Source: a virus
Lineage: Duplodnaviria; Caudoviricetes
Virus record (IMG/VR): IMGVR_UViG_3300020047_006434
Coordinates: 21,414 to 85,413 of that record
Direction: 5' to 3' (one strand)
Length of the DNA stretch: 64,000 bases
Positions 16,467 through 28,952 of this stretch are shown here, piece by piece. How positions within the stretch are numbered: the stretch's first letter is position 1; each line of letters begins with the position of its first letter. The notes under the pieces were generated by a model. It did not search any database and had not been told where the DNA came from. It saw only the letters and a list, made by a program, of their open reading frames with translations. Both the position numbers and the translations under genes were made by a program.

Positions 16467-16763
16467 ATGAAAATCAACTTACAGATTGAAGTCGATAAAG
16501 CTACAGATGCAAGCAGCCTGATTGCACTTGCGCAACTGCTGAAAGGCGGCAAAGGTGACTATACCTTTGTCTTTGACGAAGCCATGCCAGCACTAGCCAA
16601 CGTCTTACTGTGCATTAACACCATACTATTGAACACCGATGATCTAAAGTCCCGCATTGAATTGCAGAAAGAAATTGGTGATCCCATGTTGCTGCACCGT
16701 GTACAACAAATGGCTGAAAGCCTAATCGCCCACATCAAGCCACATCTCTCCTCACCAACTTAG
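16467..16763 (+). CDS. Hypothetical 98-aa protein antisense to late operon (start refined)
   Basis: GAAAGGA RBS and extended -10 TGTTATAAT at 16439-16447. Confidence 0.6.
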   Translation: MKINLQIEVDKATDASSLIALAQLLKGGKGDYTFVFDEAMPALANVLLCINTILLNTDDLKSRIELQKEIGDPMLLHRVQQMAESLIAHIKPHLSSPT

Positions 16764-17385
16764 GCGCATCCACGTCAGGCCACAGCACTACGCTGCCGTC
16801 AATGTGGCCGCACACGACACCGCAATGATGCACCTGTGGCACACCGTAGGCGATACAGTCCAGTGCAAACGTCCAGTCATCTGCTACGACGCCCAGTGGG
16901 TCATTGCGAAAGGCTAGCGTCTCCAGCACATCCCGCCGAATCAGTGTACAGCCCATACCAGCGCCCTGTGTGATCACCACGTTACCGAACCACTGCGCCG
17001 CTAACTCTGGCTGCTCGTCAACAAACTCCACTTCATAGCCTGACAGTCGTGTGAACGCTAGCCAGTGGTAAGGCGCATACCGCATCACGTACAGCCCATA
17101 GGCAACAGGCACATCTAGCGCCACCAGTTTCGACAGCGCATCGGGCGGGATGATCATGTCTGCTTCCACCAGAAACAGCGCATCATAGCCCCCATCTAGC
17201 ACCAGGCGACGCGCTTCGTTGTGCTTGTCAACGATGTCGGCGTACTTGCCCATACGGTTGGGCCGGTCATTGCGGCCATAGACGATAGGCATTGTCGGCC
17301 ACACTAGATTGTCGATGCTGGCAGCGGTGAGAGGGTGCAGACGTGGCTGTGTTGGGTTGAGCGGCACATGGGTCAGGATGCGCAT
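16735..17385 (-). CDS. Glycosyltransferase, GT-A fold (GT2-like)
   Basis: DALFLVEADMIIPPDAL (ExD variant of DxD), GAGMGCTLIRRDVL, DDWTFALD, CGHI. Confidence 0.8.
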   Translation of the reverse strand: MRILTHVPLNPTQPRLHPLTAASIDNLVWPTMPIVYGRNDRPNRMGKYADIVDKHNEARRLVLDGGYDALFLVEADMIIPPDALSKLVALDVPVAYGLYVMRYAPYHWLAFTRLSGYEVEFVDEQPELAAQWFGNVVITQGAGMGCTLIRRDVLETLAFRNDPLGVVADDWTFALDCIAYGVPQVHHCGVVCGHIDGSVVLWPDVDAPKLVRRDVA

Positions 17386-17517
17386 CGTTCGTCAATCGCC
17401 TGCAACGCCTTGGTTAGCCATGCCAGTACTGCTTTGCTCGGCGGAAATAGTAACTGTTCAACTATTGACATCCATGCATTGCTTAAGTCTGAACATGCTT
17501 CCGATAACGTCGCCTGC

Positions 17518-18006
17518 TTATTGTCCATGCTTAAAAGCCACCCCACTAATGTCTGTGTCGTTGTACATGCGAATGTCGTAGCTTTCCAATTTGCCGGTTA
17601 TGTCAAACAGGTATGACATCCCATCGGGCAAAATTCTATAGCAATCTATCGGATAACGGTGGTACTCCCAGCGGGTATGTGTGATAATCGCTAGCATCCC
17701 GCCAGGGCGCAACACTCGCACCAACTCAGGCACCCATAGCCAGATTGCCTGCACATGCTCCATCGTGCTACCGCTGATCACAATGTCGAATGAATCGTCA
17801 TCGAACGGGAAGCGGTACGGGTCAGGCGACACCATGTCAACGTTTGGGCCGGCGCAAAGGTCGAGTCCTGTATACTGCCATCCCCGTCGCTGAACCATCG
17901 GTCGGTAGGTGCCATTTACGTCCAGGCTGCCCACGTCTAGCAATCGTGCGTGACCTTGCCAGCGGTCGAGAATGCGGGTCATCTCTGACAGGCTTGCGTC
18001 ATGCAT
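17518..18006 (-). CDS. Class I SAM-dependent methyltransferase (small-molecule/glycan type)
   Basis: LLDVGSLDVNG motif I, YTGLDL, PFDDDSFDIVISGSTMEHV, VRVLRPGGML. Confidence 0.88.
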   Translation of the reverse strand: MHDASLSEMTRILDRWQGHARLLDVGSLDVNGTYRPMVQRRGWQYTGLDLCAGPNVDMVSPDPYRFPFDDDSFDIVISGSTMEHVQAIWLWVPELVRVLRPGGMLAIITHTRWEYHRYPIDCYRILPDGMSYLFDITGKLESYDIRMYNDTDISGVAFKHGQ

Positions 18007-19129: not shown

Positions 19130-19708
19130 TCATAAACTCGGCCCCCGGCTTCTCAGCAGCGCCAACACCTGTTTCGGGATGGCCTCACTGTAGATAAGCT
19201 GCCCTAACTCCTGGTTGGCAGTAGCGTCCTGCAATGCGCTTTGGTAGCGTTTCACTAGCCATCCAACCCACATGGCGGCCGCTTCGCTGATGTTGTCAGG
19301 CACGCTTGTGCTATAGCCAAACTTACCCACCACGGTGATTTCGCCGTCGGTCGTAATGCCCCAATCGTACCCGGTCAACAACTCGATAAAGTGCTTGCGC
19401 GCCTCGTTGCGTGGGTGCAACCGGTAGCCGTTTGACGGAATCACACCGCCATCACCGTTCGTCAGCGTGGTTACACTCAGGCACGGCGTATCCAGAAACA
19501 ACCGCGCCCGCTGAATCTCGCTATACTGATAATAGCGCGTTGTGTCAGCCGTCACCCGAAAGCCACCGGCCGGCATGTTGTGCATTTCGTCAAGGCGTAG
19601 CGACACGGTATTGATCAACTGTGTGATCCCCGCGTCGCTGCTGGTTGACGTAATGTCCAACCTGGCCTTGTCTTTGACATCAGCAACCGTGCAGTATGGT
19701 ACTGTCAT
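19130..19708 (-). CDS. Head-tail connector/adaptor protein (HK97 gp6 / SPP1 gp15-like)
   Basis: YCTVADVK N-terminus; VVGKFGYSTSVPDNISEAA; follows capsid genes. Confidence 0.8.
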   Translation of the reverse strand: MTVPYCTVADVKDKARLDITSTSSDAGITQLINTVSLRLDEMHNMPAGGFRVTADTTRYYQYSEIQRARLFLDTPCLSVTTLTNGDGGVIPSNGYRLHPRNEARKHFIELLTGYDWGITTDGEITVVGKFGYSTSVPDNISEAAAMWVGWLVKRYQSALQDATANQELGQLIYSEAIPKQVLALLRSRGPSL

Positions 19709-19920: not shown

Positions 19921-20319
19921 TTAGGCCAGCGTCACATTAACATTATTTGTGACGTACCATTCGCCCTGGTACGCGGTGACCGCAATGCCGTCACCGATAG
20001 CGCCGCCGAACGTGCCAACGTCGCCACCTGTGTCGCCAGCATTAAAACCGATGGTGGTGGCGGTGACGGTGTGAGCCGCGGCGGTGGTGCTCACGAACAC
20101 GATCTCTACACCGTCATGCGTGGTCGCAGTCGGCGCGGCCAGGGTAAGGTTGGCCGCGGTGCCTTTGGTGATGAACACCTTGAGACGACCGCTAGCCGGA
20201 ATCGACACGGCGCCGTTGGCGCTGGCAACGGTAAACTGATTCGATACATCAGTCGCAGCAATCGACGCCAGATCATCACCAGTGGCCACATCGCGCTTGA
20301 GATTATACAATCCTGCCAT
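19921..20319 (-). CDS. Putative capsid decoration protein
   Basis: A/T/G-rich beta protein right after MCP; AGGAGG RBS. Confidence 0.6.
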   Translation of the reverse strand: MAGLYNLKRDVATGDDLASIAATDVSNQFTVASANGAVSIPASGRLKVFITKGTAANLTLAAPTATTHDGVEIVFVSTTAAAHTVTATTIGFNAGDTGGDVGTFGGAIGDGIAVTAYQGEWYVTNNVNVTLA

Positions 20320-20331
20320 GATGGCCTCCTG

Positions 20332-23300
20332 TTAAAGCGTGACGTTGTACGAAATTGCAGAAGCTTCCGTATCCCGGTAGACCATGCCGACGCGCATCAT
20401 GCCGACAATCACGGTGCTGTCACTGATGGCATCACGCTGAACCTCAAACGTCCAGTTGCGCTTGTAGCCAAGGCGCCACTGATCCCAGCGCACGGCCAAA
20501 ATGCTGCCGGTCGTGTTGTTGCTGGCGGTGTCCAGGTCAATCTTGCCGGCCGTGTTGGCCTTCAGCCCGTAGGTAGCATCCTGGTTGGCGCGGTGCATGT
20601 TGTTGGTGGTCAGCACATCGTAGCCGTACACCCGGCGCAAAACACCCTCTTCGATGGTTGGCATCGAGTAGACATCCTGTGTTTTGAGTTCGGCCAGTTC
20701 CAACGATTTCCAGTGCGTGAACATGTCAATGATATAGCTGACGCGGGATTTCTCCACGGCGTTCTTGCCACCCAGACCCATTAGCTTAATGGTTTCCAGG
20801 TAATCCTCAATCGTCAACGTGCCAGCGCTGCGGCTGTTGGCCGTGTTGGTGACCAAGGCAAGCTTGCGGAAGCCGTCAAACAACAGGAAGGCTTCTGTGC
20901 CAGCAGGAGTGCCGCCGATGTCGTTGATGTTCGTGGTTGCGCCGGTGGCGGTATCGCCATCAACAACCACGTGTTCTAGCACTTCGGCGCCTTCGTTGAT
21001 CAGGTCGCGGCGGAGTTCAGCCACCCAGGGGATCAAGGAATCTTCCTCAAGCTCACCGCTATAGTTGACGGCAGCGCCCAGCTTGCTGACGGTCAGCGTT
21101 TTGCTAGTGCTGCCCATCTTGCTGCTGGTGATGGTCGGTGTCACGCGCCCCGGATTGCTGTCCTGCGCAGTCGCCTGTGCAACCTTGTAGAACGTGGGGC
21201 TGGTCGTGTTGACCGGAATCACAATGGATTCGCTGCCTTGCGGCACGACCACAGTGGGGATGCGGTTGACGATTTGCGTCTGTAGCCGAATCTTGTCCCA
21301 CAACTGGGTGGAATAAGTCACGCCGATCCATTCATCCCCGTAACTGGACAGCGTGCTATAGTTGAGTTCATTCGCCTTCATCGACTTGACGGCTTCAGGC
21401 ATAGCACTCTTAGCAGAACGGTATTCGTCGCCTTTGCCTTCGCTGGAATCAAGCAGGCGGATGGCCAAAGCACGGCGCAAACCTTCGGTCGTGCCTGGGC
21501 TTTCGCGGCCGTCAATGCGCATCCCCTTGGCGCTATTGAGTACGCCACTCATAAAGGAGAGGTCCTCAATCGATAGCCCGTCGTACTTGGCCTCAAACTT
21601 CGCCACGTGCGGCGCCCCACCAGGCAGGCGGCGGGCCTCGGCAGCTTCAGCCTTAGCAGCATCGGCGGCGGCCTTGGCGGCGTCTAGTTCGGCTTGCATC
21701 GCATCACGTGCAGCCTTGGCGGCATCGGTGGCCGCTGACTTCACAGCGTTCGCGATTTCGGCTTGACGGTCAGCTTCGGCTTTGGCAGCGGCATCGCGTT
21801 GGGCGAGCGCTGAAGCGACAGACTGAGCAACAAGCTCCTGAATATTTACATCGCTCATATTGTCTAAAACTCCTGTAGAACTAATGTCTTGTTGAGTGTC
21901 CGTCTCATTCGCTTTTGCCGATGCCAGCCCTCGCAACGATGTACGGTCGTCGCCTATAGCCGCACCCTCTGGCGTTTGCGCAGAGTCGGGAGATTCTATG
22001 TCAAGCGGCCAGGTCAATCCCGCCGCTGCATAAACTGATTTAAGGACCGGCAGCGCCACAGCGTATTGATTCGCCGGCTGCCGTTTGCCCACTGCGTCAA
22101 AAATTGACAGCTCTGCCACAGGCCAGTGGGTAATGTGCCCGTCGCGTTCTTTGCGCACGAGGTGCGTGATGCTGCCACTGCTCGCCCGTGCGATACCCTG
22201 TTTGGCTGCATTCCAGACGCGTACAGCGTAAGCCTGCGCTTTATCTAGTAGTGTCTTGTACCAGTGACCTTTGCTGTCGGTGTGGCTGTAAATCGCCGTG
22301 CCGATGACCTGCGGTTCGCTGGACGGGTGCCCGTTTTCGTCGTAGCCGTGGTAGTAAATGACCGGCACGGACGGGTAGCGGTCAGCATAGATATTTGTCT
22401 TGCTGCTGAAGTACTCACCGTCGCTATCCTTGCCAGCATTAGGCCCACCAAACGGCACGCCCAACACTTCAAGCGCCCATTCGCCATCGGATTTGATGGC
22501 ACGGACTAAGCCGGTGATGATTGGCTGCGATTCAGCGGCTTTCAGTTCAAAGCCTTTGACCGCTTCGCCTTTCACTTCAATCTCAATACTCACGCCGCCC
22601 TCGTTTTCGCCTTCGTCATCCTCACCCATACCGAACAACATGTAATCGATGCGCTCACCGGCCCAGACGAGGGAGAAGCCTGCAAAGTTCATGCCAAGCG
22701 CCGGCATGTCAAGCGCTGGCAGCGGTTCAGATGTGGGCAAATAGCCCAACGTCAAATGCGGCGTAAATCCGTGGTCTTCGGGCAGTTCGACACAGCATTC
22801 GGTTAATTCGTGGAGCAGTTTGGCGCGCAGCTTGAACAGCGCCGGGCTGTCATAGTTGGCGTAGACGGGGTACATTTCGGCATTGCCACTAAATCGCCCG
22901 TAGCCGTTCAGTTTACCGGCCACCGGTTCGCATTCATCAGCGATGCAGGCGAGGGTTTCGATGACCTTGTTTTTGTAGCCGGTAATCAACTGGGCATCGT
23001 CACCCAAGTACAACAGCGTAATGTGGTCAGCTTCGCTATTGGCCATGTCGCCAACACGAAACGGCGCCAACTGCGCCTGCTGCTCAGGTGACAACATCAG
23101 CGCTACCATTGCGCCTGGGTGTGCGTTCGGATCGATCTGCACAGCCTTTTGCGCCATGTCATCAGCGGGCATGGTTGGCTCATCACTGGCACTTGGTTCC
23201 AGTTCCAGCGTGGTCGCCACGATAGTCTGCGCCTGCTGGCGAATGTTGCGAATCCGTTGTCGGTCGCTTCTACTGTTGCGCTGTCCTGCCTTACCTGCCA

Positions 23301-23643
23301 TGCGTTCCTGCTCTCGTAATATGCGTTGTGCCCATGCTTTGCCGGCGTTGCCACCCCACAACAACCACGCCACGGTCCCGGCCGTTGGCCCGCCGTCGAA
23401 CTCTTTCACGTTGGGTCTATAGTTCTTCTGGTGCCGGCTGAAAAAGTTCGCCATGCGCTGGATTGTGTCCAAGCTTACGGCGTCACCATTCGCCAGATTC
23501 GTGGCACGCTGTACACCACTGCCGATGCCTTCGTCGCTGGCTTCTGCGTTACTCAAGCCACCACGCCCCCACTTTTTGCGGAGTTCTAGCCCCCGACGGG
23601 CAGCACTGCGGACGTTTTCAGGTGGTACAAACGAATCAGCCAT
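20332..23643 (-). CDS. Polyprotein: uncharacterised head-associated N-domain + 2H phosphoesterase + HK97-type prohead protease + scaffold + major capsid protein
   Basis: One uninterrupted frame; HITL (23014-23025) and HLTL (22747-22758); protease motifs YHG and ASSGS; Ala-rich coiled coil; HK97-fold MCP motifs (KLGAAVNYSGELEEDS, FDGFRK, GYDVLTTN). Confidence 0.85.
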   Translation of the reverse strand: MADSFVPPENVRSAARRGLELRKKWGRGGLSNAEASDEGIGSGVQRATNLANGDAVSLDTIQRMANFFSRHQKNYRPNVKEFDGGPTAGTVAWLLWGGNAGKAWAQRILREQERMAGKAGQRNSRSDRQRIRNIRQQAQTIVATTLELEPSASDEPTMPADDMAQKAVQIDPNAHPGAMVALMLSPEQQAQLAPFRVGDMANSEADHITLLYLGDDAQLITGYKNKVIETLACIADECEPVAGKLNGYGRFSGNAEMYPVYANYDSPALFKLRAKLLHELTECCVELPEDHGFTPHLTLGYLPTSEPLPALDMPALGMNFAGFSLVWAGERIDYMLFGMGEDDEGENEGGVSIEIEVKGEAVKGFELKAAESQPIITGLVRAIKSDGEWALEVLGVPFGGPNAGKDSDGEYFSSKTNIYADRYPSVPVIYYHGYDENGHPSSEPQVIGTAIYSHTDSKGHWYKTLLDKAQAYAVRVWNAAKQGIARASSGSITHLVRKERDGHITHWPVAELSIFDAVGKRQPANQYAVALPVLKSVYAAAGLTWPLDIESPDSAQTPEGAAIGDDRTSLRGLASAKANETDTQQDISSTGVLDNMSDVNIQELVAQSVASALAQRDAAAKAEADRQAEIANAVKSAATDAAKAARDAMQAELDAAKAAADAAKAEAAEARRLPGGAPHVAKFEAKYDGLSIEDLSFMSGVLNSAKGMRIDGRESPGTTEGLRRALAIRLLDSSEGKGDEYRSAKSAMPEAVKSMKANELNYSTLSSYGDEWIGVTYSTQLWDKIRLQTQIVNRIPTVVVPQGSESIVIPVNTTSPTFYKVAQATAQDSNPGRVTPTITSSKMGSTSKTLTVSKLGAAVNYSGELEEDSLIPWVAELRRDLINEGAEVLEHVVVDGDTATGATTNINDIGGTPAGTEAFLLFDGFRKLALVTNTANSRSAGTLTIEDYLETIKLMGLGGKNAVEKSRVSYIIDMFTHWKSLELAELKTQDVYSMPTIEEGVLRRVYGYDVLTTNNMHRANQDATYGLKANTAGKIDLDTASNNTTGSILAVRWDQWRLGYKRNWTFEVQRDAISDSTVIVGMMRVGMVYRDTEASAISYNVTL
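21870..21874 (-). promoter_or_regulatory. Internal RBS (AGGAG) ahead of in-frame ATG at 21858 (MSDVNIQELV...)
   Basis: AGGAG-11 nt-ATG at the protease/scaffold boundary. Confidence 0.5.
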
Positions 23644-23659
23644 AGTCAGAAAAATGAAC

Positions 23660-23701
23660 AAAAAAAACGGCGTGTAACCGGATTTCTCCGATCACACGCC
23701 G
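23660..23701 (-). terminator. Intrinsic terminator-like hairpin upstream of the capsid polyprotein
   Basis: 8-bp stem CGGCGTGT/ACACGCCG followed by a U run on the - strand. Confidence 0.6.
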
Positions 23702-23772
23702 CTGGTCAATTAAGACGGTTAGACGTTTTATCTATATTTAGTTTGGGCTAAGTGCCCTTAACACCTGCTGAC

Positions 23773-23801
23773 AGTATACCAGAAAACAGGCGTTTCGTCA
23801 A
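23773..23801 (-). promoter_or_regulatory. sigma70 promoter for capsid operon
   Basis: TTGACG-17 bp-TATACT. Confidence 0.7.
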
Positions 23802-24493: not shown

Positions 24494-25144
24494 CTACAGC
24501 TTAGGTACCACTAGCGGGTTCCACGTTGTTGCATTCGTGATGCATCCGGCACAGTTTTCTGTCGGCGTCAACGTCCAGTAGCAAAGCCACTCTTTATCAT
24601 TCTCTTTGATGTCCCAGTAACATTTACAGTTGCTGAGACATGGCGTATTACCTGCTCCGGGGTACTGTGGCATGTCAGGCATCCCCCGTGCCGCCACCTT
24701 TGACCGCTCAAAAGCTTGGCTACTTGCCTCCGCATACATACGCGCCCGCGATGCAACCGCTGATTCGTTGTAGCGCCCACCGGCAATGTCGGTGGCGAAT
24801 CTGTCCAGATATTGATACTGGTTGCGCACCATATGGCCAACACGCCCCCAGTCGGCCTGAGACATCGTATTGCGTCCACCATGTGCAAGCATGTACTGAT
24901 TGATAAAATTGTCTTTAATCTCTTGGCGCATTGCCAGGGTCCACTGATTCAGGTTGATGTCACCTTTGCTTAGTTTGGCCGACAATCCATTGACGCGTTC
25001 TTTACTTGACGCAATAATCTGCTCGCGAAAATCGAGCATTTTCTTCTGACCAACGAACGTGCCGGCGGTCTGATTGAGCGTGGCCGCGCCTTCTGCCGTT
25101 ACACGGTATCGTCTAGACGCGGAGTCCCATGACCATAGTCCCAT
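24494..25144 (-). CDS. Minor head morphogenesis protein (MuF / SPP1 gp7-like)
   Basis: Directly after portal; C-terminal CLSNCKC motif. Confidence 0.7.
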   Translation of the reverse strand: MGLWSWDSASRRYRVTAEGAATLNQTAGTFVGQKKMLDFREQIIASSKERVNGLSAKLSKGDINLNQWTLAMRQEIKDNFINQYMLAHGGRNTMSQADWGRVGHMVRNQYQYLDRFATDIAGGRYNESAVASRARMYAEASSQAFERSKVAARGMPDMPQYPGAGNTPCLSNCKCYWDIKENDKEWLCYWTLTPTENCAGCITNATTWNPLVVPKL

Positions 25145-27003
25145 TATAGGTCACTCCCGACCGATTGCGCATCGGCTTCGAGCAAGCCGGCATAATTGGG
25201 AAACGTCCGATCCCACGCCGCTATGGCGTGCTCAATATCGTCATCAGTAATCTGTAGCTCAGATGGCACAGGCGGCAATGGCTCATCGTTGCCACGTGGA
25301 ATAAATCGCAATGCCTTTGCGCTATCGTCTCGCACGTCAGCGTAGATAGTGGCTTTGTCAGCGTCGGTCAGATATGCCGCCTTAAATCCGTCAGGCTGCC
25401 GTGATTCGTCACGCTTAAGCCACTTGCGGTAAGCTTTCGCTTCCTGTTGGCGCATGGTATCCGGTGGCGCATCTGCCGGCGCGCCCTGCGGTTGGTCCGG
25501 CGGTGGTTGCTCTTGTGGCGCTGGCAATTGGCGCTGTGGTTGGACGGTCACGGAATCGACGGATGGTAGCAATGCAGGCGGTAATCCCATTAACTGGAAC
25601 AACGCTTCCGGCGGAATGCCAAGCCCCACACCAGCGGCGATTGCCTCGAACTTGGCTTTGTACTCCGATGGCGGTGGCTGTGGCAATGGTGGTAATCCTA
25701 ACCCTGCCCGCGCCTCTTCACGGGTAATAATGCCGGCGGTAATTTGATAGTTGTAGGTTTGCGCCAACTGAACACGCCCAGCGCTTTCGTCAGGCTGTGC
25801 TGCCGCTTGCTGTACGGGTTCAGATAGCAGGCGTGCGCCTTTATTGTCGGCTAGGGGCGGCATACTGTAGAAGCCCTGCCGTAGCTCGTCAATCGTTTGC
25901 ACCTGGCTGGCCGCGTTCTGTTCTGCCAACTGCATACCACGGTCGGCAATCCGCACGTCGTCAAAAGCGCCCACAAGATCGTTGCCATAGGCAGGCAGTA
26001 AATCATTGGTGATCTTCTCCGCAATGCTGACTAGTTGCGGCCACACCGCCATTTCCATAAAGGTGGATTTTCCGGCATTGCTGTTGGCCTCAGTGGCATT
26101 CACGGCCAGCATGGAGGCGTAACCAGGTGCGTAGATTGAAAAGATTTCCTCTTTATTGAAGGTGCGGCCGCTCAGGAACTCCATGTCACGCTGTGATAGC
26201 GCCATACTAATCCACTGCACGCCACCTTTGCCCACGTTGCGCAGCATCATCATCTGGCGCTTTGTGCCGCCATGCTTGGCATTCACATCGGCTTTGATTT
26301 TCTCCCATGCGTCGTTTTCAATTGGGTCAGCAAATGCTAGCGCACCTGGCACCTTGGCGTTGTCCTTGTCAAAGTAGTTGGTGTTCCACCGTTGCATAGC
26401 CAAGTCACCCTGCGCTATGGTAGCCAGCGCTTCAATTGGTGATAAGCCCACAAAGCTATTGAGCGGGTGAAAGCGCTTAAAGTGGACAATCTCATGACGC
26501 TCTAGCGGGATTTTTTCGCCGGCATCTGATTCGTACATGTAGCCACGTAGGAACATCCTGCCATCGGGTACCGGTTGAATCCGGTGTGGTGGAATAATCC
26601 AAATCTCGTTCGGCTCAGCATTTTCATTGGCGCGATTTAGCCACCAGTAGGCATTGCCGGTCAATGCGTGAAAACTAATCGTCGCCTCTAGTAATTCAAA
26701 GCGGCTCTGCAATGGGTTGGGCCGGCGTAGCAATAACTCGAATGGATGATTTTCGACGCCTTGTGTGTCTTCGCCTTTTAATTGAGATACACTAAATCCA
26801 GTTGTAGCAGCCGTGCGCGCAACACCAGCCACAGCCGCCTGCACCCATGACAAGCGCAAGTACAATTCGGATTGCGCCTGTGGTAGCGACCGATCCGGTA
26901 TCGCCCACCGCTCATCATTTGCCGTTACCCGCAGCCAGTCCGCCTGCACTTGGTCCGCCTTGCGGTACCCGAACCGCGCCGCCAATCTATCGATGATGCC
27001 CAC
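25144..27003 (-). CDS. Portal protein, HK97 family
   Basis: HPFELLLRRPNPLQS, GNAYWW, EIVHFKRFHPLNSFVGLSPI, FSIYAPG...N. Confidence 0.92.
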   Translation of the reverse strand: MGIIDRLAARFGYRKADQVQADWLRVTANDERWAIPDRSLPQAQSELYLRLSWVQAAVAGVARTAATTGFSVSQLKGEDTQGVENHPFELLLRRPNPLQSRFELLEATISFHALTGNAYWWLNRANENAEPNEIWIIPPHRIQPVPDGRMFLRGYMYESDAGEKIPLERHEIVHFKRFHPLNSFVGLSPIEALATIAQGDLAMQRWNTNYFDKDNAKVPGALAFADPIENDAWEKIKADVNAKHGGTKRQMMMLRNVGKGGVQWISMALSQRDMEFLSGRTFNKEEIFSIYAPGYASMLAVNATEANSNAGKSTFMEMAVWPQLVSIAEKITNDLLPAYGNDLVGAFDDVRIADRGMQLAEQNAASQVQTIDELRQGFYSMPPLADNKGARLLSEPVQQAAAQPDESAGRVQLAQTYNYQITAGIITREEARAGLGLPPLPQPPPSEYKAKFEAIAAGVGLGIPPEALFQLMGLPPALLPSVDSVTVQPQRQLPAPQEQPPPDQPQGAPADAPPDTMRQQEAKAYRKWLKRDESRQPDGFKAAYLTDADKATIYADVRDDSAKALRFIPRGNDEPLPPVPSELQITDDDIEHAIAAWDRTFPNYAGLLEADAQSVGSDL

Positions 27004-27446: not shown

Positions 27447-28952
27447 CTATGCAAAATCGACTAAGCTCTCTGGTTCTATTGTGCCAAAGATTAACGGTCC
27501 AGCCGCAGCCAAAGCAACAGCGTCACCACAGTCAGGTGAACGTTTGATGCGGTCAATAATTTCATCTTTGCTTTCCACTTGAATGCCCCGCATTGTAAGT
27601 TTCCACCGTGGAACGCATAGGTCGGCTTTTAATTCTGAATCTGGCGGCAAGGCTATATCTTCACCACTTTGCGGATCTAATGCTTCTCTCAACTTCCAAT
27701 ATGCTTCTGCCCGCTTATTGACAATGCGCAGCTTCCTGCTTTTGTCTGTGGCAGACGATGCTTCTGCGAAATTCGCTGCATTAACCTTTACTCCATTAGC
27801 CCTTACTGCGTCGTACACAGCGGAACCAACGCCAATAATATCAAGATTGATTCGCACACCAGGCTCGTAAGCTGCTATCACTTTTGCTGCTGCGGTCGGC
27901 CCATCTGGTGTCTCAGATCCTGCATACTTTAGCAGTGGAGCAAACCAATTACCATAGCGCTGGGAAATCACCGTTTTATCCTTGCCACCTCTAGCGACAT
28001 CAACGCCCAATGCTGACAATGCGGCGTCTGGCTTGCCTCGTTGCTTCCATCTTGCCTGCGCCAAGTCAACCCATAAAGTCGGTATCACTTGCCACGGATT
28101 ATCTTCTACACCGACGAAGAAATCGCCCTTAAGCATTTGTGTTCGCAGCGGTTCTGGCAATGACTGCAAGGTTGCTCCATAATCAGTTGCCATTAGATAA
28201 GGGTTATCAGATAATCGCGCCGGTACAAATGTTCTACTTTTCGGCTTTATCTCATCGCCCTTATGTATGAATGGTCGGCTTGATTCTACCTCTACATCCT
28301 CACCGTCAATCATAGCGAACCAGCGCAATTCACCAGGCTTTGCAGGGTTGCTATACTGCTTGTCTATCCAAGGTGCCCAACGCCTTATGACCCATTCGCC
28401 ATCAGCATTCGTTGGCGGATTGCCTGCACCAACAACCCTCGTTCTTTGCCCTGGTTTTGTTGTGCGATTCCAGCCTATCAAAAATCGATACTGGAGTTCG
28501 GTGAAATTTGGCAACTCATCAAATGCTTTTAGATCGTGAGCGCGACCCTGGTATTTACTCACATCGCCCTCGTACTGAACGGCGCCAAATTCAAGAGTGC
28601 ATTTAGGTAGACGCCACATGTTCGCCTGACCATTATATCTACCTTTGATGCCGATGATCGCTTGACTACGATCAATCATGTCCTTAAGCTGCGGATACTC
28701 ACGGCGAAACACGATGCTTTTTGCGTGTTGGGTAAGTGCTAGACCTAGAATCAAATCAGTCTTGCCGCCACCGGCAGCGCCGCCATAAAAAAGCTCATCG
28801 GCATTAGAGTAGTATGCTTCAGTCTGTGGACCCGGCAACGGGCGCCATATCGTCTGATCCGCCTTCAACAGTTTGTCGATCTCGTCTAGCTCTTGCGGCT
28901 TCAAAAATGGCAGCAATTCTAGCAGCTCTTTGTTCGTCCGTGAAAGTAGCAT
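27447..28952 (-). CDS. terL: Terminase large subunit
   Basis: Walker A YGGAAGGGKT, Walker B KAFDELPN, nuclease LGVDVARGGKD and SPDCGDA. Confidence 0.93.
   Translation of the reverse strand: MLLSRTNKELLELLPFLKPQELDEIDKLLKADQTIWRPLPGPQTEAYYSNADELFYGGAAGGGKTDLILGLALTQHAKSIVFRREYPQLKDMIDRSQAIIGIKGRYNGQANMWRLPKCTLEFGAVQYEGDVSKYQGRAHDLKAFDELPNFTELQYRFLIGWNRTTKPGQRTRVVGAGNPPTNADGEWVIRRWAPWIDKQYSNPAKPGELRWFAMIDGEDVEVESSRPFIHKGDEIKPKSRTFVPARLSDNPYLMATDYGATLQSLPEPLRTQMLKGDFFVGVEDNPWQVIPTLWVDLAQARWKQRGKPDAALSALGVDVARGGKDKTVISQRYGNWFAPLLKYAGSETPDGPTAAAKVIAAYEPGVRINLDIIGVGSAVYDAVRANGVKVNAANFAEASSATDKSRKLRIVNKRAEAYWKLREALDPQSGEDIALPPDSELKADLCVPRWKLTMRGIQVESKDEIIDRIKRSPDCGDAVALAAAGPLIFGTIEPESLVDFA

Follow-up and report, generated by a model that had tools for sequence, protein, structure and literature searches.

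A predicted internal start and a LigT-type 2H phosphoesterase domain in the head polyprotein gene of an uncultured tailed phage

In phage lambda (C/Nu3) and in herpesviruses (UL26/UL26.5), the protease and scaffold genes are nested. The N-terminal (delta) side of HK97-type capsid subunits faces inward, and the HK97 delta domain, the portal crown, and SPP1 gp7/MuF are all located inside the capsid. Phosphoesterase domains of the 2H type that are fused to MuF or portal proteins have been predicted to be packaged and injected as "polyvalent" effectors, and it was proposed that they cleave RNA or break down defence signals made of 2'-5' oligoadenylate or cyclic nucleotides (Iyer et al. 2017, PMC5512222); this 2H type was never seen with ligases, and fusions to protease or capsid proteins were not mentioned in that study. 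Here, we analysed a stretch of 64,000 nucleotides (positions 21,414 to 85,413 of IMG/VR record IMGVR_UViG_3300020047_006434; hereafter the window) from an uncultured tailed phage of 85 kb, in which one gene on the minus strand encodes a head polyprotein with an N-terminal domain (N-domain), a conserved basic helix, a 2H phosphoesterase domain, a prohead protease, an Ala-rich scaffold, and a major capsid protein (MCP). We propose, with a probability of roughly 0.6, that this head-assembly gene yields two nested proteins and that the long form carries the 2H domain as cargo inside the head. The new element is a predicted ribosome-binding site (RBS) and ATG that are conserved at the junction of the protease and the scaffold.

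Predicted internal start and integrity of the polyprotein gene

The comparative evidence pointed to an in-frame internal start with its own RBS at the protease/scaffold boundary. Met596, the predicted first residue of the short product, was invariant in 15 sequences with 43–64% identity, in which the surrounding linker was variable. Across 60 IMG/VR loci, the codon aligned to Met596 was ATG in 57 and GTG in one. Of 55 dereplicated loci, 51 had a Shine-Dalgarno (SD)-like motif (GGAG, GAGG, or AGGA) 4–17 nt upstream of this codon, compared with a background in the same genes of 8.7% for codon positions overall and 6.4% for in-frame ATGs elsewhere (binomial p about 2e-49). The motif was spelled through different residues and codon registers (TGV, PEG, NKE, SED, IGG, TRR, and SRS), which argues that the constraint acts on the RNA and not on the protein. 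In locus L076, the protease and the scaffold-MCP are separate genes and the split lies exactly here: the TAG of the protease open reading frame (ORF) overlaps the AGGAG, followed by the ATG of the scaffold-MCP gene. The synonymous substitution rate (dS) was lowest just upstream of the internal site (0.23 versus 0.7–1.7 elsewhere), which is a weak hint from 33 codons.

The start of the long form (ATG 23643) has no SD and follows the T-run of a terminator, in contrast to the tail-tube gene, in which the same T-run is followed by AGGAGG. From these sequence features, the short scaffold-capsid protein of 508 aa is probably the bulk product, and the long form is probably a minor product that would bring the protease and the enzyme into the procapsid. 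An internal start would resolve the difficulty that the DNA would be left with too little room if each capsid subunit came with its own copy of the enzyme.

The gene encodes 1103 aa, and the region 20332..23661 (minus strand) is free of stops up to the stop codon at 20332–20334. The ATG at 23643, and not an upstream TTG, was taken as the start of the long form because the MADSF N-terminus is common to all full-length homologues. The same architecture of 1094–1104 aa was present in at least 11 independent metagenome proteins with 71–92% identity. In Logan contigs from four runs of different studies, the ORF contained only in-frame or self-compensating indels (one 3-nt insertion, one +1/−1 pair 4 nt apart, and one in-frame replacement), and the substitutions were mostly spaced by 3 nt. 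An origin of the fusion by assembly error or frameshift was thus ruled out by the homologues together with the contigs. The original prediction of a head polyprotein in a single frame therefore held, with no stop or frameshift between its domains, and the motifs it named (HITL, HLTL, YHG, ASSGS, the Ala-rich coil, and the MCP) were all found. Compared with the IMG/VR relative L004, for which dS was near saturation, the ratio of nonsynonymous to synonymous substitution rates (dN/dS) was 0.057 for the 2H domain, 0.077 for the N-domain, and 0.053 for the capsid domain, indicating that all parts are under strong purifying selection. Searching solved structures with the whole protein as a single sequence produced no meaningful match, and no record in the phage collection covered at least 80% of the polyprotein.

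The virus record is a complete genome of 85,413 bp with direct terminal repeats, and the sequencing runs containing the stretch came from wastewater or activated-sludge metagenomes. The polyprotein gene lies downstream of the large terminase and portal genes within a standard head module, and two small proteins are encoded between the portal and the polyprotein ORF on the minus strand (Table 1). The structural module also contains, between the neck and tail genes (16735–18006, minus strand), genes for a glycosyltransferase-like protein (weak match to PF13641) and for a class I S-adenosylmethionine methyltransferase. ARAGORN detected zero tRNA genes within the window, and PADLOC gave no match.

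Table 1 Coordinates of the polyprotein gene, its predicted parts, and neighbouring genes in the window
Feature	Residues	Position	Strand	Basis or remark
Large terminase		27447-28952	-	head module
Portal		25144-27003	-	head module
Leader		23660..23801	-	promoter, motif ACGTCTAACCG, hairpin-T8 terminator
Long-form head polyprotein gene	1103 aa + stop	20332..23643	-	N-domain, helix, 2H, protease, linker, scaffold, MCP
N-domain	1-118	23290..23643	-	phrog_2859; helical; head-associated promiscuous module
Conserved basic helix	119-165	23149..23289	-	K-x-G-x-R-N-x-x-x-D-x-x-R-I-x-x-I
2H phosphoesterase domain	166-345	22609..23148	-	PF13563, fold, conserved HxT
HxT motifs	207-209 and 296-298	23017-23025 and 22750-22758	-	H207-I-T-L and H296-L-T-L
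Prohead protease domain	386-560	21964..22488	-	AF2/structure match; invariant His432, Ser488, His494
Internal RBS and ATG (predicted start of 508-aa scaffold-MCP)	Met596	AGGAG 21874-21870; ATG 21858-21856	-	11-nt spacer
Ala-rich coiled scaffold/delta-like domain	596-700	21544..21858	-	sequence; phrog_10 match
HK97-type major capsid domain	701-1103	20335..21543	-	PF05065, phrog_10, phrog_1623
Small ORF		19921-20319	-	downstream of polyprotein gene
Head-tail adaptor		19130-19708	-	after small ORF

Domains of the polyprotein and their relatives

The 2H domain matched PF13563 (2_5_RNA_ligase2) at 43.9–47.9 bits (gathering threshold 27) and LigT_PEase (PF02834) at 21.1 bits, which is below the 23.3 cut-off. 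Its two HxT motifs are separated by 89 aa, and alignments of 22 family members and of 73 distant 2H relatives showed little or no variation in either motif. The AlphaFold2 (AF2) model had a predicted local distance difference test score (pLDDT) of 80–90 across aa 175–340. Using VIA-align, the best structural matches were Thermus TT0787 (1iuh; Z 17.3, 162 residues aligned, root-mean-square deviation (rmsd) 2.7 Å) and the Deinococcus cyclic phosphodiesterase (CPDase) 5h7e (Z 17.1, 163 residues aligned, rmsd 2.8 Å), followed by E. coli LigT (Z about 15), YjcG (14.7), Usb1 (13.9), rotavirus VP3 (13.2), and mouse hepatitis virus ns2 (12.6). The proven degraders of immune signals ranked lower, with Z 9.5 for Acb1 (7t26; 131 residues, rmsd 3.6 Å, rank 42) compared with Z 15–17 for LigT-type chains, and Z 9.0 for the penguinpox cGAMP phosphodiesterase (PDE). 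The PDE of Burkholderia phage BCSR5 (PDB 9q2y) gave Z 10.0, and a literature search for this enzyme found no paper. The order of Foldseek matches (best E 1.6e-7) and a profile search of PDB sequences agreed with the Z ranking. The Acb1 Pfam model PF23474 gave no match at E up to 1 for the whole protein or up to 10 for the domain alone; among the 73 clade relatives scanned, six matched it weakly.

These results bear out the prediction of a 2H phosphoesterase domain with both HxT motifs. Judged from the model, the fold is genuine and closest to bacterial LigT/CPDase enzymes. The description of the domain as "Acb1-like" is correct at the superfamily level only: the structural comparison recovered the 2H fold, but LigT-type enzymes outranked Acb1, which is a distant relative.

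Relatives of this domain recurred as parts of larger head-associated proteins. A HMMER scan recovered 2534 2H relatives, 885 of them at E < 1e-10. The top 150 had a median length of 669 aa, and 115 of these were at least 400 aa long; their partners included a prohead protease piece in at least 20 and portal C-termini in at least eight. A Pfam scan of the 73 relatives identified Phage_portal (7), Portal_Mu (2), Phage_capsid (7), MuF (4), and Mu-like protease (3) as partners, and ADP-ribosyltransferase toxin, zeta toxin, and ParB-like domains were also found. In Gordonia phage ChisanaKitsune (L001, 6770–8826), a stand-alone 2H gene directly follows the portal gene and precedes a gene for a VIP2-like ADP-ribosyltransferase toxin. 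Since this position is typical of packaged effectors, the "RNA ligase" annotation of the ChisanaKitsune gene is probably misleading.

A core of about 700 aa consisting of the helix, protease, scaffold, and MCP was widespread, with at least 245 matches in the metagenome search and 254 confirmed IMG/VR loci. The sequence upstream of this core was variable: relatives had no extension, the 2H domain alone, the N-domain with the 2H domain, the N-domain with a Cys-rich mini-domain, DUF6582, or several small MPW/MPY-type domains. The 2H domain was part of the polyprotein in two of 80 IMG/VR loci examined. In L076 (1799–4603) and L079 (1775–4540), it was instead located on the portal C-terminus and followed by about 300 further residues. 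In other relatives with 73–87% identity in the core (P0013, P0016, P0018, P0019, L005, L006, and L008), a zinc-ribbon-like Cys-rich segment (C-x2-C ... C ... C) replaced the 2H domain. Because this segment occupies the exact 2H position in close relatives, cassettes appear to have been exchanged recently in this slot. Thus, the fusion is real across relatives, but the core is common and only the N-terminal slot varies; the claim of an unusual architecture was overstated, as protease-scaffold-MCP fusions are common and fusions of 2H domains to head proteins had already been described (PMC5512222).

The N-domain, which had been called uncharacterised, was modelled as helical with pLDDT 70–90 and belongs to phrog_2859. 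No Pfam family matched it, the ESM Atlas contained no informative named neighbour, and the PDB match lists, which were filled by the 2H domain, gave no known fold for it. It is conserved to a degree that is unusual among phage domains: it was 60–78% identical in proteins with XkdF-type proteases, portal and MuF domains, Dam methylases, and InPase, as well as in ADP-ribosyltransferase (ART)-NUDIX-Acb1-WGR giants (the names of some of these fusion proteins were taken from BFVD). In Synechococcus phage S-CBS4, the N-domain is a stand-alone gene between the portal and MCP genes, and in Vibrio phages the protein encoded at this place (258 aa) begins with it. In the basic helix, G120, R122, N123, D127, R130, and I134 were nearly invariant. 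This helix forms the N-terminus of many shorter protease-scaffold-MCP proteins of about 710–800 aa (such as P0044, P0049, P0050, L043, L063, L081, and L082), and in the window it is preceded by the N-domain and followed by the 2H domain. Met115, which precedes the helix and has a weak AGGA upstream, may be a vestigial or third start.

The protease, scaffold, and MCP assignments were likewise supported. The AF2 model of the protease had a core pLDDT of about 90, and the exhaustive aligner gave T4 gp21 (5jbl) as the best match (Z 9.1, 129 residues, 3.3 Å), above the herpesvirus assemblins in the next rows (varicella-zoster virus, Z 6.8; human cytomegalovirus, Z 5.4). In a Foldseek search, the top ~34 rows were all herpesvirus proteases, each with E ≥ 0.01. 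No curated Pfam family (S78, S78_2, Mu-like_Pro, and others) matched the protease at E up to 10. YYHGY (His432), ASSGS (Ser488), and His494 were invariant in 26 and in 15 aligned sequences, and these three residues are predicted to be catalytic from their order and spacing. The protease is a divergent lineage and, according to the model, has the assemblin/T4 gp21 fold. The Ala-rich coil itself spans about aa 600–690. PF05065 matched aa 778–1094 only marginally (24.4 bits versus a cut-off of 24.2), phrog_10 (major head protein) matched from aa 595 with E 1.3e-8, and the profile match of the capsid domain to solved MCPs was weak.

Upstream of the gene, a strong sigma70-like promoter (TTGACG-17-TATACT with an extended −10 TG) was found at 23801–23773, followed by the motif ACGTCTAACCG at 23726–23716 and a terminator with a 17-bp hairpin and T8 at 23703–23660 (all minus strand), which ends 17 nt before the long-form ATG (fold z −5.2). 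This leader was kept in L004, L005, and L008 with compensatory changes in the stem, and it looks like a late-gene leader under antitermination control. Many more distant relatives also have a T-run shortly before the polyprotein gene.

Cargo model and candidate roles of the enzyme

In the proposed model, ribosomes starting at the internal site would make the bulk scaffold-capsid subunit, and those starting at the SD-less upstream ATG would make the minor full-length form, which would co-assemble through its own scaffold and capsid part. The inward-facing capsid N-terminus would place the protease, the 2H domain, and the N-domain within the procapsid, and the protease would then cut these pieces free. 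We are quite confident that the 2H domain spends at least some time inside the procapsid. That it is retained in the virion and leaves it together with the DNA, like T4 internal proteins or MuF- and portal-borne effectors, is a more tentative proposal with slightly less than an even chance. The original suggestion that the enzyme may be packaged is made plausible by this topology, and the swap of the 2H domain between protease and portal among related phages is consistent with a function that depends on a place within the head. By its layout, the polyprotein corresponds to a predicted polyvalent protein, with a head anchor and effector-type domains in the virion module; the overt effectors among the fusion partners of the 2H domain and the N-domain include ADP-ribosyltransferase and zeta toxin.

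Several points weigh against this model. An SD was recognisable in only about half of the genes of this phage, so its absence at 23643 is only suggestive, and the 11-nt spacing between the internal SD and its ATG is rather long. The protease could also digest a folded cargo of this size (about 20 kDa) instead of leaving it intact. With respect to a counter-defence role, the nearest fold neighbours are of the housekeeping LigT/CPDase type rather than enzymes with proven anti-defence activity.

If the N-terminal domains served assembly only, by regulating the protease, determining head size, or contacting the portal, they would be digested and the 2H chemistry would be irrelevant. In HK97 and many other phages, internal scaffold or delta parts are indeed broken down and lost from the head, and the N-terminal slot can be dispensed with in most members of the family. 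Against this, the HxT motifs are invariant across very divergent relatives and the fusion partners include overt effectors; with a dN/dS of 0.06 for the domain, as low as that of the capsid domain, the invariant catalytic residues argue for a working enzyme, and a purely structural role is very improbable.

For such an enzyme carried as head cargo, the activity that we consider most likely is hydrolysis, in the service of counter-defence, of a substrate with a 2',3'-cyclic phosphate or a 2'-5' linkage or of a cyclic oligonucleotide. Host immune nucleotide signals and RNA ends or RNA cleavage are equally possible as targets, and each taken singly is rather unlikely. The shared 2H fold does not fix the substrate, and it neither supports nor excludes a role against CBASS, the antiphage signalling system based on cyclic oligonucleotides. 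Viral LigT-like enzymes have been retargeted many times and repeatedly adapted to degrade immune nucleotides (Nomburg et al. 2024, PMC11410667).

The nearest structures, CPDase and 2'-5' RNA ligase enzymes together with Usb1, would also suit an enzyme that heals or processes RNA ends, either as a 2',3'-cyclic phosphodiesterase for the repair of tRNAs or other RNAs cut by host anticodon nucleases or as a Usb1-like RNase, after delivery by the capsid or in the cytoplasm. An RNase role was one of the two options favoured by Iyer et al. (PMC5512222). However, the fold leaves the substrate open, no RNA_ligase (PF09414) family gene was found in the complete 85-kb genome, and 2H domains of this type were never seen with ligases (PMC5512222). 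Heal-and-seal RNA repair is therefore not favoured given the missing ligase gene, and RNA-end healing or processing as a whole is improbable.

A further explanation links the enzyme to the protein on which it sits. Prohead proteases are reported to activate CD-NTases (cGAS/DncV-like nucleotidyltransferases) by cleaving their activation loop (PMC12991175), and CBASS escape mutations map to the protease and the scaffold (bioRxiv 10.1101/2023.05.21.541620); the literature thus implicates prohead proteases and scaffolds in setting off CBASS, in agreement with the original statement on prohead proteases. The 2H domain could have been fused to the prohead protease because the protease switches CBASS on, and it would then degrade cyclic oligonucleotides late in the producing cell in the manner of Acb1, with packaging being incidental. 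Protease is the commonest identifiable fusion partner of the 2H clade, viral LigT-like enzymes have repeatedly been turned against immune nucleotides (PMC11410667), and the six weak Acb1 matches among the 73 relatives fit this explanation. On the other side, the domain in the window lacks a PF23474 match and is much closer to LigT/CPDase than to Acb1 (Z 17 versus 9.5), and fusions of the clade to portal C-termini and MuF are just as frequent, with the 2H domain changing between portal and protease among close relatives. What portal, MuF, and protease have in common is the capsid interior, not the triggering of CBASS. Moreover, if the long form is minor, there would be little free enzyme in the cytoplasm. 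In view of the portal and MuF fusions and the LigT-like character, an anti-CBASS antidote is a minority reading; both a late-acting enzyme in the producing cell and an antidote in cis, in which each active protease (in relatives, another protein of the head interior) brings along a phosphodiesterase that destroys the alarm and is also carried into the next cell, are unlikely, the second slightly more so. A search of the phage genome for SMODS/CD-NTase (PF18144) found none, which is uninformative about the host because the record is viral.

The family is a concrete candidate for asking whether head-borne LigT-type 2H enzymes are counter-defence effectors and whether the frequent 2H-protease fusion is linked to protease-triggered CBASS. 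The N-domain is a second target, as it is highly conserved and attached to many head and effector proteins.

Comparison with known systems

If the cargo model is right, the gene encodes loading of an HK97-fold capsid by subunit fusion, dosing by a nested start, and release by the resident protease, which would connect phage internal proteins, the logic of herpesvirus UL26/UL26.5, and encapsulin cargo loading. As in lambda C/Nu3 and UL26/UL26.5, the protease is on the long form, an in-frame internal start is predicted for the abundant short form, and a shared C-terminus would direct co-assembly; the likeness to UL26/UL26.5 extends to a protease of the assemblin fold. Unlike in these systems, the shared C-terminal part includes the MCP and the long form carries non-assembly domains. 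Compared by annotation, the fusions of SEA-PHAGES phages (Arthrobacter AU/AW and Microbacterium EE) similarly join prohead protease and MCP in one frame, and "major capsid and protease fusion protein" is a routine annotation in actinophages.

The enzyme domain shares the 2H superfamily, the two HxT motifs, and the phage origin with T4/FBB1 Acb1 (PF23474; 7t26), but Acb1 is a small free cytoplasmic protein, whereas this domain lies within a structural polyprotein. LigT/CPDase enzymes (5ldm, 5h7e, and 1iuh) gave the best profile and structure matches over the entire domain length; these are free cellular enzymes with 17–22% identity to a domain that is embedded here in a virion assembly protein.

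T4 internal proteins and Alt, which have capsid-targeting sequences, P1 Dar, and cargo-fused encapsulins are also examples of proteins that are loaded into an HK97-fold shell, set free in T4 by the head protease, and put to work in the next infection. In contrast to these, loading is predicted here to occur by covalent fusion to the shell subunit and not by a targeting peptide. The polyvalent proteins (PMC5512222) are similar in having a 2H domain on a head-interior protein, a predicted logic of packaging and injection with an RNA or nucleotide-signal target, and portal, MuF, ADP-ribosyltransferase, zeta toxin, InPase, and NUDIX as partners. They differ in that the anchor here is a protease-scaffold-MCP polyprotein, from which delivery would need proteolytic release, and in that a nested internal start would set the dose. 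The general idea of head-borne 2H effectors is thus already published, and the protease-scaffold-MCP anchor with a nested start is a new variation on it.

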